Counted from the first letter of the stretch, positions 1-5,117 are shown. The stretch: DNA of 32,000 nucleotides from Planctomycetales bacterium (GCA_022646745.1 CP060262.1:2160001-2192000), one strand, 5' to 3'. Numbers and translations: made by a program. The notes: generated by a model not told the origin, from the letters alone.

Positions 1-1242
1 ACTCATGTCGAAGCGCGCGAAGGCCCGTTCGTCACTGAACACCAGCTCGGTGACGGCCTTGGCCAGCTCGGTCTTGCCGACGCCGGTCGGGCCGACGAAG
101 AAGAACACGCCCTTGGGCTTGGCGCGGCGGCCCGTCGTGCCGCTCATCGAGATCCCGACGCGCGCACTGGTCAGCATCCGGCAGACCGCCTCCACCGCGA
201 AGGGCTGGCCGATCACCCGGCTGCCGAGGATCTGCTGCGCATTGGCAACCTTGTCGCGGCTGAGCTCCTCCCAGGGGTCGTCACGGATGCCGAACTTGAA
301 GTAGTCGATCAGGCTGCGCAGGTCGAGGATCGGGATCTGCTCGACCCAGCTCGTGCGCCTCAGCGCCTCGAGGTCCCAGGCCTGGAAACCGTCCGTCAGG
401 TCGGCGAACTCCTCGAACAGCTCGTCCTGCTCATCCGCCGGGATCTCCTCCCAGGCGAAGAAGCCGCTGTGGAAGTTGGCAATGAACTGCAGGCGCTCGT
501 CCTTGTCCGGCCGGCCGCACTGGATCAGCGTGACCACAGGCAGGTCCATGTACAGCCACTCCGGCACGCGCCTCAGCTCACCGGCGGTCAGCACCAGGGT
601 GTTGCGGTAGCCGGCCAGCGGGCCCTCGAGGATGATCGCGGCCTCCAGCATCGCCTTCTGCAGGATGATCACGCTGCCACGTTCGGCCTCGGCATAGCGG
701 TTGGCATCGCTCGTCAGCATGTCACCGAGGTTGACGATCGCCGCCACGCTGACCTCCCCCTGGCTCATCACATGCCTGAGGCGCGAGAAGGCGGTCTGCG
801 GGTCCACCCGGCGATTGCCCCGCGGGCGGCTGGCCGCCGGGCTGCTGCGCCGCGGCGGGGCCGTTGTCAGGTCGCCGCTGTCAGCCGTGGCCTGTACCTC
901 ACTCGTGTTGTCAATGTTCGGCTGGCCCTGCGGGTCCGGCGTGTCGTCGCCGGTCAGCCCCGGGTTGGCGGCCTCCAGCCGGCGGCGCGCCATGTCGTTG
1001 AACTGCCGCTCCATCTCCTTCGTGGCGAAACTGAAGCCGTCCACCGGGTCGTAGCTGACCACGATGTCGTAATTCAGGCTGGCGAAGTGTCCGCGCACGT
1101 AGTCCTGCAGGGTGTGGTACTGCCCCCTGGCGATGAACTGGTCGTGGATGTTGCCATACAGCAGCATGTGCCGGCCGCGCATCAGCTGCTTCTCGAAGTC
1201 CGTGATCCAGCGTGAATTGACAAGCTGCGGGTTGCCAGTCAC
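1..1242 (-). CDS. AAA+ ATPase, ClpA/ClpB D2-like, with a degenerate N-terminal ATPase-like region (partial; C-terminus lies beyond the window start)
   Basis: Not in the ORF track because no stop lies in the window. My hand translation of the minus strand in the frame of position 1 is open for all 414 codons. It ends ...ILGSRVIGQPFAVEAVCRMLTSARVGISMSGTTGRRAKPKGVFFFVGPTGVGKTELAKAVTELVFSDERAFARFDMS, which carries the ClpA/B D2 signature (VIGQ..A...., Walker A GPTGVGKTELAKA, R.DMSE). Proposed GTG start at 1242-1240 overlaps the upstream stop as GTGA. The N-terminal part reads MLLYGNIHDQF where a Walker A would sit. Confidence 0.75.
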   Translation of the reverse strand, partial: MTGNPQLVNSRWITDFEKQLMRGRHMLLYGNIHDQFIARGQYHTLQDYVRGHFASLNYDIVVSYDPVDGFSFATKEMERQFNDMARRRLEAANPGLTGDDTPDPQGQPNIDNTSEVQATADSGDLTTAPPRRSSPAASRPRGNRRVDPQTAFSRLRHVMSQGEVSVAAIVNLGDMLTSDANRYAEAERGSVIILQKAMLEAAIILEGPLAGYRNTLVLTAGELRRVPEWLYMDLPVVTLIQCGRPDKDERLQFIANFHSGFFAWEEIPADEQDELFEEFADLTDGFQAWDLEALRRTSWVEQIPILDLRSLIDYFKFGIRDDPWEELSRDKVANAQQILGSRVIGQPFAVEAVCRMLTSARVGISMSGTTGRRAKPKGVFFFVGPTGVGKTELAKAVTELVFSDERAFARFDMS

Positions 1243-3176: not shown

Positions 3177-5117
3177 TCAGTCCAGCCGGCTGTTTTCCAG
3201 CAGCACGGGCGCGTCGGGGTGCTCGCGGCTGCCGGCCCCGTTCACGTGCACCTCGCAGTCGATGAACTGCGCCTGGCTGCGCCGCCCGCCGGCGATGCCC
3301 CAGCCGTGGTTCTGGCGGATCTCGCAGCCACTGAACACCGGCGAGCCACTGCCGCCGAGCAGCACGCCATGCTCGAGGCAGTCCGCCACCAGCGAGCCGC
3401 TCAGCTCCCCCGCACCATCCTCATGGAACAACAGCCCGCTGCCGCGGATGCCGCGCACGGTGCAGTGCTGCATCAGCACCTTCGAGCCGGCCCCGGTATA
3501 GACCCCGGCGAAGCCGCTGCCGCTCACCGTGCAGTCCCGCAGGCTGACCGTCGCATGGTGGCTGATGCTCAGGCAGGCATTGCGCCCGCCGCTCAGGCTG
3601 CAGTCCGCCAGCTGCGGGTTGCTGCTGCGCCCGAAGGCCGTCACGCAGACATCCCCCTCGCTAGTGATGATGCAGTCGCGCACCACGCAGCGCCCGAAGG
3701 GCAGGCACAGCGCCGCCGCCCGCACCTCGCTGTTGCTCACCCGGCAGATCAGCTCCAGGTTGCGCAGCACGGCACGTGCCGTCTTGCACAGCACGGTATG
3801 CCGGTCACGGCTGACGATGCGCACCTGGCCCGGCCCACCTTCGCCGACCAGCGTGATTTCGCGGTCCAGCTGCAGCTGCTCGTTGTAGCTGCCCGGCGCG
3901 ATGTGGATCGTGCTGCCCGGCGTGGCATTGCGGATCGCCGCCGAGATCGTCGGGTAGTTGCTACCGCCGCCGACATTGAGCAGCTGCGGTTCACGCGTGC
4001 TGGGCGGGGCCACATTGCTGGCCGGGGGCGGGGCATCCACAGGCTGGTCCTCCAGCTGCGCGCGGATGCGGTTGAACAGGCTGCGCGCCGTTGCCAGTGG
4101 GATGCGCAGGCGGCGGGCAGCCTCATTGAGCTCCACGCGCTCCGGGCTGGAAATCAGCCGGTCGGCCAGGGCGGCGCGGATCAGCTGCTCCAGCTCGGCC
4201 ATTGCCGCCCCGTCCTCCTCGATTTCAAACGGGTTGTCAGCGAAGTCGCGCTCCGTCACCTGCAGGCCATCTGCATTGAACTGCGTAAGCTCCCTGAGGA
4301 TCTCAGCCGCCGTGATGCGCCGTTCGCTGTCCCGCCTGAGGCATTGCCGCGCGATGGTGGCGAAGGGTTCGCGCACCGAGAGCGGCATATGGGGCATGTC
4401 GTAATGCACGCTGCGCATCAGCCCGCGCTCACCTTCACCGGAGAATGGCAACTCCAGGCTGAGCGATTCCACCAGCACCACGCCGAGGCTCCAGATGTCC
4501 CAGCCGCGGGTGATCACGCCGTCGTAGCTCTCCGGCGGGGCGTACTCCGCCGTGCCGAAGGCCGCGCCCTGGGTGGAATGCGTGCCGCCGAGCGCCACGG
4601 CCGTGCCGAGGTCGCTCAGCTTCCACTGCCCGTGGCACTGCAGGATGTTGGCCGGCTTGATGTCGCGGTGCACCAGCCCGCGCGCGTTGTCATGCAGGTA
4701 CTCGAGCGCCGTTGCCATCTGGCGCAGCATGTCCGCGGCCTGCGCCGGCTCCAGCGGCCCGTTGGCAAGCACGGTCTCGAGGCTCAGCTCCGCCAGCTCC
4801 ATCACGATGTATAAAAGTGGCCCGAGCGGTGAGTCCCACTGGCCGACGGAATGGCAGCGGATCACATGTGGATGGTCCAGTCCGGCGGCGTACTGCAGCT
4901 CGGTGAGCTGCTTCTCACGCGCCACCTGCACGCGGTAGGGGTTGTCACCGGTGGCGGGCTGCAGCAGCTTGATGGCAACACTGCGCATCAGCCGGTCGCC
5001 CACCACCTCGTCCGCACGGAACACCCCGCCGTAGGAACCGGCGTCAATGAATTCCGTCAGGTGGTACTTGCCCTCGATGCTGTTTCCGAACAACGAGCGC
5101 CAGTCAAGTTCAGCCAT
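3177..5117 (-). CDS. Hanks-type Ser/Thr protein kinase fused to a C-terminal right-handed parallel beta-helix (PbH1-like) repeat domain
   Basis: Kinase motifs: GSYGGVFRA (Gly loop), VAIKLL, HRDIKPANIL, SDLGTA, GTAEYAPPE. The C-terminal ~250 aa shows ~22-aa repeats with periodic C/V/G (…VRDCIITSEGDVCV…LRDCTVSGSGFAGV…MQHCTVRGIRGSGL…FSGCEIRQNHGWGI…). I place the start at the ATG at 5117 (MAELDWRSLF...), because the longer tracked ORF would overlap the upstream gene's 3' end at 5137. Confidence 0.8.
   Translation of the reverse strand: MAELDWRSLFGNSIEGKYHLTEFIDAGSYGGVFRADEVVGDRLMRSVAIKLLQPATGDNPYRVQVAREKQLTELQYAAGLDHPHVIRCHSVGQWDSPLGPLLYIVMELAELSLETVLANGPLEPAQAADMLRQMATALEYLHDNARGLVHRDIKPANILQCHGQWKLSDLGTAVALGGTHSTQGAAFGTAEYAPPESYDGVITRGWDIWSLGVVLVESLSLELPFSGEGERGLMRSVHYDMPHMPLSVREPFATIARQCLRRDSERRITAAEILRELTQFNADGLQVTERDFADNPFEIEEDGAAMAELEQLIRAALADRLISSPERVELNEAARRLRIPLATARSLFNRIRAQLEDQPVDAPPPASNVAPPSTREPQLLNVGGGSNYPTISAAIRNATPGSTIHIAPGSYNEQLQLDREITLVGEGGPGQVRIVSRDRHTVLCKTARAVLRNLELICRVSNSEVRAAALCLPFGRCVVRDCIITSEGDVCVTAFGRSSNPQLADCSLSGGRNACLSISHHATVSLRDCTVSGSGFAGVYTGAGSKVLMQHCTVRGIRGSGLLFHEDGAGELSGSLVADCLEHGVLLGGSGSPVFSGCEIRQNHGWGIAGGRRSQAQFIDCEVHVNGAGSREHPDAPVLLENSRLD

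Follow-up and report, generated by a model that had tools for sequence, protein, structure and literature searches.

A conserved six-gene cassette built around a radical-SAM enzyme, a helical protein family without a Pfam model and a Clp-like ATPase in a Planctomycetales bacterium

A 32,000-nucleotide stretch of a Planctomycetales bacterium genome (GCA_022646745.1, CP060262.1:2160001-2192000; hereafter the window) opens with four closely packed genes on the minus strand, encoding a kinase, a radical S-adenosylmethionine (rSAM) enzyme, a 424-aa protein with a long helical region (CC424) and an AAA+ ATPase of Clp type. An initial annotation, made from the sequence alone, had described four co-directional minus-strand genes with a 19-nt gap and ATGA and GTGA overlaps as a candidate undescribed system, and each of these features was reproduced from the sequence. 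The four domain calls likewise held in profile searches (Pkinase and Beta_helix for the kinase, Fer4_12 for the rSAM, AAA_2 for the ATPase, and no match for CC424). The genes and their domains are arranged as follows:

3177-5117, minus strand: kinase gene (646 aa, ATG at 5117)
4293-5066, minus strand: kinase catalytic domain (residues 18-275; Pfam PF00069 envelope)
3228-3626, minus strand: kinase beta-helix domain, PbH1/NosD-like (residues ~498-630)
2510-3157, minus strand: rSAM gene (215 aa)
3041-3064, minus strand: rSAM CX3CX2C motif for the [4Fe-4S]/SAM cluster (C32, C36, C39; invariant in 24 homologues)
1239-2513, minus strand: CC424 gene (424-aa protein)
1278-1691, minus strand: CC424 conserved C-terminal domain (residues ~275-412, from alignments including divergent members)
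1-1242, minus strand: AAA+ gene (GTG start at 1242; open at the window end after 414 codons)
283-1242, minus strand: AAA+ D1-like domain, a predicted pseudo-ATPase (residues 1-320; Walker A degenerate, LLYGNIHDQF; Pro-rich insert disordered)
1-282, minus strand: start of the AAA+ D2 module (residues 321-414; the window edge truncates it, and the full-length protein has 656 aa)

The kinase TGA lies 19 nt from the rSAM ATG, the rSAM and CC424 genes share an ATGA (2510-2513), and the CC424 and AAA+ genes share a GTGA (1239-1242). An alternative start for the kinase open reading frame (ORF), extending it to 5300, would overlap the upstream hydantoinase gene. Scans for promoters and terminators returned no site count above shuffled expectation. 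The translational coupling may point to a stoichiometric complex, as the initial annotation proposed. The genes and their packing stand as first described, but the proposed four-gene extent does not, as the window cuts the AAA+ gene and the unit comprises six genes. Using an exact-sequence look-up of CC424, it was possible to read the cassette beyond the window in other assemblies (loci L001-L003), in which genes for a von Willebrand factor A (vWA) protein and then a forkhead-associated (FHA) protein come after the AAA+ gene (656 aa). At L001, where the AAA+ protein (P0374) is identical to the window's fragment over residues 1-414, the vWA gene (417 aa) overlaps or abuts its neighbours and an intergenic gap appears only after the FHA gene (153 aa). 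No membrane segment was predicted for any of the six proteins. The window's four genes are the first of six in a conserved, horizontally mobile cytoplasmic system, and a PP2C gene brings the total to seven in related loci.

More than 120 close homologues of CC424 were recovered, all of 415-440 aa, and the family comprises 434 representatives (E ≤ 1e-3) from 1.84 billion proteins clustered at 50% identity. Across 185,579 species, each represented by one genome, 66 CC424 loci were found, spread over at least seven phyla. Cyanobacteria contribute the majority and Armatimonadota about a dozen, with UBP7, UBP9, Riflebacteria, Gemmataceae, Thermoanaerobaculia and Thermoleophilia among the remainder; no CC424 homologues were found in phage genomes. 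Neighbours were scored with the window's proteins as queries against ORFs from all six frames of every locus, and co-occurrence was counted in the 24 species-representative loci with at least 6 kb upstream and at least 8 kb downstream, which belong to Cyanobacteria, Armatimonadota, Planctomycetota, Riflebacteria, Acidobacteriota, Actinomycetota and UBP7/UBP9. CC424 was accompanied by the AAA+ protein in 21 of these 24 loci, the rSAM in 20, the kinase in 19, the FHA protein in 17, the vWA protein in 16 and PP2C in 10. The gene order rSAM-CC424-AAA-vWA-FHA-(PP2C)-kinase is recurrent (e.g., L012, L035, L053, L055, L063 and L064) and was seen in Armatimonadota, Cyanobacteria, Riflebacteria, Gemmataceae and Thermoanaerobaculia. 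Chance adjacency, which the initial annotation had set against its proposal and which neighbourhood recurrence was to decide, is excluded because the synteny recurs across phyla, and the conserved synteny of the 66 species-level loci confirms a functional association. The same annotation had left open whether the kinase belongs to the unit. A homologous kinase lies within ~10 kb of CC424 in the 19 loci counted above, and its position shifts from the 5' end of the cassette in the window to the 3' end in Chthonomonadaceae, with the same beta-helix tail; since the kinase moves yet stays in the unit, it is part of it.

Several loci depart from this arrangement. The closest relatives of the window's cassette, from UBP7 (L014 and L015, 8724-11278), have the rSAM and AAA+ genes separated by two CC424 paralogues in tandem, compared to the single CC424 of the window (P0007 and P0008 lie on one contig). 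In a Thermoleophilia metagenome-assembled genome (L078, 8994-12757) and in Riflebacteria (L076, 9270-9980), the rSAM, CC424 and AAA+ matches are split over several short ORF pieces, which suggests a decaying copy or assembly errors.

The invariant core of the system is the triad of rSAM, CC424 and Clp-like ATPase, as the rSAM and AAA_2 genes flank CC424 despite changing regulators. The kinase, FHA and vWA proteins, with or without PP2C, are one of at least two alternative control layers, the place of which is taken elsewhere by DO-GTPase/GAP1-N2 or HSP70 genes, such that the same core appears drivable either by a kinase/FHA switch or by DO-GTPases. In Streptomyces the order is vWA-PP2C-kinase-rSAM-479 aa-AAA_2-HSP70-DO-GTPase2-GAP1(N2)-DO-GTPase2, with CHAT and RES genes nearby, and the 479-aa protein is a divergent CC424 (hmmsearch 1.9e-17) that begins with MSGSPKYS and retains the CD and WxGK motifs of the C-terminal part. 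Prochlorothrix has a TerF-like vWA, HSP70, rSAM, CC424 and AAA+ together near an integrase. On plasmid pGM01 of Geminocystis sp. NIES-3708 (L083, 18461-43714), three DO-GTPase genes stand between the rSAM and CC424 genes and a HigBA (HigB/HigA) module between CC424 and the AAA+ gene, and upstream of the rSAM, past fragmented UvrD-helicase genes and at a distance of a few kb, are genes for an annotated anti-phage dCTP deaminase and a dGTPase. A Fer4_12 rSAM is adjacent to very divergent CC424 relatives (551-1050 aa) in all three cases examined; two of the three also have an adjacent AAA_2 and DO-GTPase2/GAP1-N2, and the third is on a 4.9-kb contig where the downstream gene is truncated and unannotated. 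Among the loci examined, DO-GTPase genes occur in six and GAP1 in three, with neither in the window's cassette or at L001. The DO-GTPase and GAP1 pair stands beside the core only at L080/L081, L084 and one divergent-member contig, and L083 has DO-GTPases only.

Other neighbours were noted from inspection of the sequences. What looks like a fusion of a LamG/ConA-like domain to a classic (CDC48-like) AAA+ protein in tandem form lies upstream of CC424 in 11 loci, including L042, and an apparent fusion of a LamG-like domain to a long Gly-rich repeat protein lies upstream in eight. The loci with LamG-like neighbours (L022, L024, L030, L032, L038, L040, L043, L044, L050 and L074) are mostly from heterocystous cyanobacteria. 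An apparent FHA and winged-helix protein is present in five other cyanobacterial loci. Of all these domains, only FHA is independently annotated, in the L009 member.

At full length (L001, P0374) the AAA+ protein matched AAA_2 at 5e-48. Its residues 317-654 form a complete Clp/Hsp100 D2 module (ClpC, 1e-58 over residues 317-619; ClpB, 1e-55), with the Walker A motif GPTGVGKT, the Walker B motif LLFDEIE and the pore loop GAPPGFVGY. A sequence-level identity was sought for the N-terminal 320 residues, with no match in Pfam or the PDB, and only fold comparison was informative. An AlphaFold2 (AF2) model of the protein (predicted local distance difference test [pLDDT] score, 80.7) was aligned by Foldseek to two-ring ClpC, ClpB and ClpA structures over 520-700 columns, compared to ~330 columns for D2-only structures, and the N-terminal part therefore appears to have a D1-like AAA fold. 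The D1 P-loop position reads LLYGNIHDQF, without GK[ST], in all homologues, which points to a pseudo-ATPase ring, and the Pro-rich insert carries an invariant Arg. The protein is thus predicted to be a two-ring Clp-like ATPase in which the first ring is catalytically dead and the second is a complete D2 threading motor. The ClpP-docking [LIV]-G-[FL] loop was not found (where ClpC has its 'YVGF' region, the aligned residues are 'ERGGEISF'), no clpP gene was present in any locus, the protein had no match to the Clp_N domain, and there was no FtsH chain among its 48 PDB matches.

The rSAM is the best conserved component, with 48-58% identity across phyla, and extends to Streptomyces. It matched Fer4_12 at 9.3e-33 and the NrdG model TIGR02491 at 114.3 bits, below the cut-off of 126.1, over profile positions 7-153 of 154. 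It is composed of a full NrdG-type core and a family-specific C-terminal extension of ~60 aa with invariant residues of its own. The invariant motifs are LGPGxRA, WVQGC-x3-C-x2-C, SGGEP, DLLVDGxY and WRGSxNQR, the GPGIR peptide-binding loop is retained, and LVDGxY and WRGSxNQR are motifs that we take to be NrdG-typical. The only structurally solved relative in the PDB is pyruvate formate-lyase (PFL) activase, and several sources annotate the homologues as NrdG. No NrdD or Gly_radical families occurred in any annotated neighbourhood of the core, a statement confined to neighbourhoods and not extended to whole genomes. As NrdG and PflA act on proteins, the GPGIR loop is kept and the genes are usually adjacent (with the ATGA overlap here), the rSAM most probably acts on a protein, and most probably on CC424. 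A clade of NrdG-type activases without a glycyl-radical enzyme (GRE) partner, in mostly aerobic or oxygenic hosts, points to an undescribed protein-radical or modification chemistry, and the candidate substrate is encoded next door, which makes it directly testable.

CC424 begins with a conserved MSGSPKY peptide, continues through a long helical-hairpin region and has a conserved alpha/beta domain towards its C terminus. Profile searches of Pfam, NCBIfam and PADLOC returned no match, leaving a family of ~430 cluster representatives without a Pfam model, an annotation gap. In the AF2 model (pLDDT, 83), long helical hairpins span residues 10-304, followed by five strands and a helix (305-390) and a conserved disordered tail, and Foldseek comparison of the model with the PDB and viral predicted structures gave no significant match. 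A relationship to alpha-pore-forming toxins or BAR-like proteins was considered and rejected: the Foldseek matches (Hbl, CAMP factor, BAR/EFC, VP5 and tape-measure proteins) were all of low probability with very large root-mean-square deviations, and amount to generic helical-bundle noise. The longer relatives (551-1050 aa) were considered as possible Rosetta-stone fusions, but they differ by longer helical regions and have no extra Pfam domain. Gly352 was considered as a glycyl-radical site, lying at a beta-hairpin tip with Tyr/Phe as the following residue and invariant in 30 close homologues, and was set aside because the position holds Asp/Glu in P0323 and P0345. The neighbourhood of one of these two, P0323, was retrieved, and the rSAM is still adjacent. 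Across divergent members only the N-terminal Met-Ser-Gly, Gly306, Cys369-Asp370, Trp396 and Pro412 are universal, and within the C-terminal domain this alignment holds no universally conserved glycine. The candidate modification sites left are the Cys-Asp pair, the Trp and the N-terminal peptide.

For the kinase, matches to Pkinase (8.2e-38) and Beta_helix (8.3e-21) were accompanied by one to NosD, and the catalytic motifs (VAIK, HRDIKPAN, DLG and APPE) are intact in sequence. The tail differs by lineage: the window's clade and Chthonomonadaceae have a beta-helix, cyanobacteria a formylglycine-generating enzyme (FGE)-sulfatase domain. The kinase is predicted to be the sensor or input component, with the beta-helix at a variable ligand-binding position. 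In Planktothricoides sp. SR001 (L009, 2500-8300) the locus contains a complete diversity-generating retroelement (DGR) consisting of bAvd, a reverse transcriptase and a template repeat (4987-5115), the target of which is the last 129 nt of the kinase gene (5494-5622), at the position of the FGE-sulfatase domain. The 129-nt template and variable repeats differ by 13 mismatches, 12 of them at template adenines, which together with the reverse transcriptase/Avd cassette is the signature of a DGR. DGR-diversified sensor kinases are thereby linked to a defined downstream machine. The same kinase gene carries eight tandem 33-nt repeats (6418-6744). In the two proteins encoded beyond the window, the metal ion-dependent adhesion site of the vWA protein is complete (D48, S50, S52, T118 and D146; DxSxS, T, D), and the FHA protein has the phospho-threonine-binding residues G58 R59, S83 R84 x H86 and N105 G106 T107, both sets being conserved in 28-29 homologues. 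The vWA protein scored 22 bits against VMAP-M8, below its cut-off of 27.

Outside the cassette, a hydantoinase A/B (oxoprolinase-like) fusion of ~1284 aa (5137-8991, minus strand) ends 19 nt upstream of the kinase ATG and is probably co-transcribed with the kinase here. It was considered as a unit member in view of this spacing and shared strand, but did not recur among the clustered flanking ORFs of the species-level loci and is regarded as a neighbour. An unusually complete shikimate and tryptophan supercluster with two gene fusions occupies 11294-23728 on the minus strand (aroK-aroB fusion, aroC, aroE, aroA, 3-deoxy-D-arabino-heptulosonate 7-phosphate synthase, trpA, trpF-trpB fusion, trpC, trpD and trpE). 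A 1226-aa FG-GAP/ASPIC-UnbV repeat protein (24728-28408, minus strand) adjoins rpiA (24030-24731), and an ORF at 29764-30441 has no Pfam match. The GC content dips to 0.59 at 9000-11000 and to 0.56 at 29000-30000, compared to ~0.66 elsewhere, and the AT skew is positive at 9-11 kb. At L001, the genes 3' of the FHA gene (13858-20053) encode a 1187-aa GAF/PAS histidine kinase, followed by an HZS_alpha-like-domain protein and an NHL-repeat protein.

The best reading of these observations, with a probability of roughly 0.5, is a conflict-type unfoldase system under a phospho-switch, with CC424 as the protein that the rSAM would modify, both the chemistry and the biological role being inferred. The kinase would sense a ligand via its variable C-terminal domain and phosphorylate either a bound target or one of the system's own components. 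The phospho-threonine mark may be read by the FHA and vWA proteins, which would serve as an adaptor for the ATPase, a part proposed for the vWA protein because vWA partners do so for other AAA+ proteins, while PP2C, where present, would erase the marks. The ATPase could then thread or disassemble CC424 or a CC424-bound assembly, with the rSAM modifying a protein that is most probably CC424 itself. The role would most likely be counter-invader conflict or abortive-infection-type signalling, and not housekeeping. Such a role is suggested by the rare and patchy spread (66 loci among 185,579 species), by plasmid carriage beside nucleotide-depleting defence genes, by toxin-antitoxin insertions in the cassette, by the DGR-diversified sensor kinase, and by the association with DO-GTPase/GAP1, CHAT and RES genes. 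Further context of this type comes from L009, where type II restriction-modification genes and a PIN toxin accompany the DGR, and from integrases near L011 and L082.

Several observations weigh against this reading. No component can be recognised as a toxic effector of the nuclease, protease, pore-former or NADase kind. The surroundings in this genome and in Chthonomonadaceae are of a housekeeping kind (across the two, the hydantoinase/oxoprolinase fusion, AhpC, the shikimate and tryptophan cluster, fructose-bisphosphate aldolase and LeuA), with DUF2461 also near the cassette in this genome. The association with defence islands was judged from a handful of loci. The link between the rSAM and CC424 as its substrate is drawn from adjacency, co-occurrence and family precedent only; no glycyl-radical fold or domain was present among the Pfam or Foldseek matches of CC424, and Gly352, its most GRE-like site, is lost in divergent members, including the one with an adjacent rSAM. 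In addition, the window's cassette, with its continuation at L001, has no PP2C gene with which the switch might be reset. Some of these points would fit a cell-biological or regulatory module in which a phospho-regulated Clp-like remodeller would build and take apart a coiled-coil or helical-bundle scaffold of CC424 and the rSAM would install a stabilising modification, with development, motility, stress granules or envelope organisation as possible settings. This account, which is possible though doubtful, draws on the lack of a canonical toxin, the housekeeping neighbours in the window and at L012, the strong bias to filamentous cyanobacteria, Streptomyces, Planctomycetota and Armatimonadota, the predicted soluble, cytoplasmic nature of all six proteins, and the hint of a transcriptional output in the FHA and winged-helix regulator of five cyanobacterial loci. 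It is harder to reconcile with the rarity and very patchy occurrence (~66 of 185,579 species), a plasmid-borne core beside a dCTP deaminase and a dGTPase, toxin-antitoxin genes inserted in the cassette, a sensor kinase diversified by a DGR, and the association of the core with DO-GTPase/GAP1-N2, CHAT and RES, which are traits typical of accessory conflict systems.

Two further explanations were weighed. One holds that the rSAM is an ordinary anaerobic ribonucleotide reductase activase (NrdG) that lies beside unrelated genes by chance, as might be supposed from its top NCBIfam match (NrdG, 114 bits over the whole profile) and the annotation of its homologues. That explanation is already effectively refuted by a score under the 126.1 cut-off, a 60-aa C-terminal extension common to all members, the lack of an NrdD or Gly_radical gene in the annotated neighbourhoods, the linkage to CC424 in 20 of the 24 loci with the ATGA overlap in the window, and the presence of oxygenic cyanobacteria and Streptomyces among the hosts. 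The other, which is improbable, takes the cassette as a sub-type of the systems described by Kaur et al. 2020 (eLife, PMC7159879) or of TerY-P, with the rSAM, CC424 and AAA+ proteins as accessory passengers. DO-GTPase2 and GAP1-N2 genes do directly adjoin the Streptomyces, Geminocystis and metagenomic versions, Kaur et al. 2020 describe a GAP1-N2 theme of actinobacteria that includes kinase, PP2C and vWA, and the FtsH ternary system of the same paper has dead and live AAA+ domains, vWA, rSAM and helical proteins. However, MoxR, FtsH-type AAA, GAP1 and DO-GTPase are lacking in the window's cassette and in most loci, the live ring is a Clp D2 with no FtsH chain in its 48 PDB matches, the rSAMs of Kaur et al. 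are not NrdG-type, and their main text has no ClpB-like ATPase or CC424-like helical protein in the GTPase systems.

The triad may be a new protein-directed effector module, a tentative and rather unlikely proposal that takes one of two versions, an rSAM-modified helical protein or a phospho-degron form of immunity. In the first version, an NrdG-derived activase would place a radical or radical-derived mark on a helical protein that is not a GRE, and with hosts that are largely aerobic or oxygenic, oxygen-dependent backbone cleavage or a Cys/Trp cross-link could act as an irreversible switch. In the second, a kinase with a hypervariable, DGR-diversifiable sensor domain would tag foreign proteins with phospho-threonine, and FHA and vWA proteins would pass them to the unfoldase, amounting to a programmable phospho-degron immunity aimed at proteins and not nucleic acids.

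The claim that the combination matches no named system was borne out, with PADLOC matches at the domain level only and NCBIfam matches all below cut-offs. The PADLOC matches were limited to the kinase domain (PD-T4-6, mad6 and MkoA) and the AAA core (PDC-M37B and DolB), with nothing for the rSAM, CC424, vWA and FHA proteins, and the NCBIfam matches were all far below the equivalog cut-offs except for the near-miss to NrdG. A full-text literature search, the coverage of which excludes most subscription journals, found no paper describing the combination. As far as these tools show, the rSAM-CC424-Clp-like core is undescribed in PADLOC, NCBIfam, Pfam or the searchable literature. Among defence systems, the DolB match to Dodola (DolA/DolB; 3e-19) spans the AAA core only and there is no match to DolA (DUF6414), while for MADS the antiphage_MADS6 model scored 85 bits compared to a cut-off of 460, with only the kinase domain aligned. 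The PpkA/PppA/Fha1/ClpV pathway of type VI secretion systems (T6SS) was represented by VI_ClpV1 at 51 bits compared to a cut-off of 885, with no T6SS families in the neighbourhoods.

The individual components have known relatives. With the NrdG/PflA activases the rSAM has in common the full NrdG profile coverage and the CX3CX2C, GPGIR and SGGEP motifs, but differs in its extra C-terminal domain, the lack of a GRE partner in the neighbourhoods and its largely aerobic or oxygenic hosts. The AAA+ protein has the D2 threading motor, canonical pore loop and two-ring fold of the Clp/Hsp100 unfoldases (ClpB, ClpC and ClpV), but with a dead D1 and without Clp_N, an M-domain or a ClpP-binding loop. In the McsB-ClpC phospho-degron pathway, a phospho-arginine mark is read by the ClpC N-domain. 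The sequence of kinase mark, adaptor and delivery of cargo to a Clp motor would be similar here; the mark would instead be phospho-threonine, read by a separate FHA protein.

The control layer resembles TerY-P in having a vWA protein and a Ser/Thr kinase, joined in 10 of the 24 loci by PP2C, as a phosphorylation switch attached to conflict modules. That triad consists of vWA, PP2C and a Ser/Thr kinase (Anantharaman et al. 2012), with anti-phage activity according to Gao et al. 2020, as cited in PMC10542128. The present system departs from this triad in several ways: PP2C is missing from the window's cassette, the kinase ends in a beta-helix or FGE-sulfatase domain where TerY-P has a zinc ribbon or OB fold, there is an additional FHA reader, and the switch is coupled to the rSAM-CC424-AAA core. 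No TerY-P model was among the best 25 of the 33 PADLOC matches of the kinase. If PADLOC-DB holds TerY models, the lack of any PADLOC match for the vWA protein argues against a close TerY relative. For the GAP1-N2/DO-GTPase systems, the point in common is that DO-GTPase genes, accompanied in some cases by GAP1-N2 and HSP70 genes, directly flank the rSAM-CC424-AAA core in Streptomyces, on the Geminocystis plasmid and on metagenomic contigs; the published systems include an actinobacterial kinase, PP2C and vWA theme and an HSP70 theme (Kaur et al. 2020, PMC7159879), and the neighbours at the Streptomyces locus are exactly these. The window and most loci differ in having no GTPase or GAP1, and the published text does not contain the rSAM-CC424-Clp-like core.

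The nearest published relatives are the conflict systems of Kaur et al. 2020 (PMC7159879), whose vWA-MoxR ternary systems pair a MoxR-type AAA+ with vWA and add VMAP, iSTAND, FtsH or a beta-propeller as the third component. The FtsH-type system among them consists of dead and live tandem AAA+ domains, vWA, rSAM and unique helical proteins, needs MoxR, uses an FtsH-type ATPase and a Memo/AMMECR1-type rSAM and is rare in cyanobacteria. This system and the present one both have tandem AAA+ domains with a dead N-terminal and a live second copy, a vWA partner, system-specific all-helical proteins, a stand-alone rSAM with a co-encoded protein or peptide as its predicted substrate, and a bias to multicellular bacteria. 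The present system differs in having no MoxR (the single AAA+ gene at L001 is Clp-type, and no MoxR-type AAA+ was present there), a live ring of the Clp/Hsp100 D2 type, an NrdG-type rSAM compared to the SPASM-fused or Memo/AMMECR1-type rSAMs of that paper, in which NrdG is unmentioned, an abundance in cyanobacteria, and the kinase/FHA layer. The system is therefore rated as belonging with the NTPase/vWA, phospho-switched conflict-type systems of complex bacteria, with a core not described before, and it would bring a Clp-type unfoldase core into the group of 'thresholded' NTPase/vWA conflict systems that multicellular bacteria carry.

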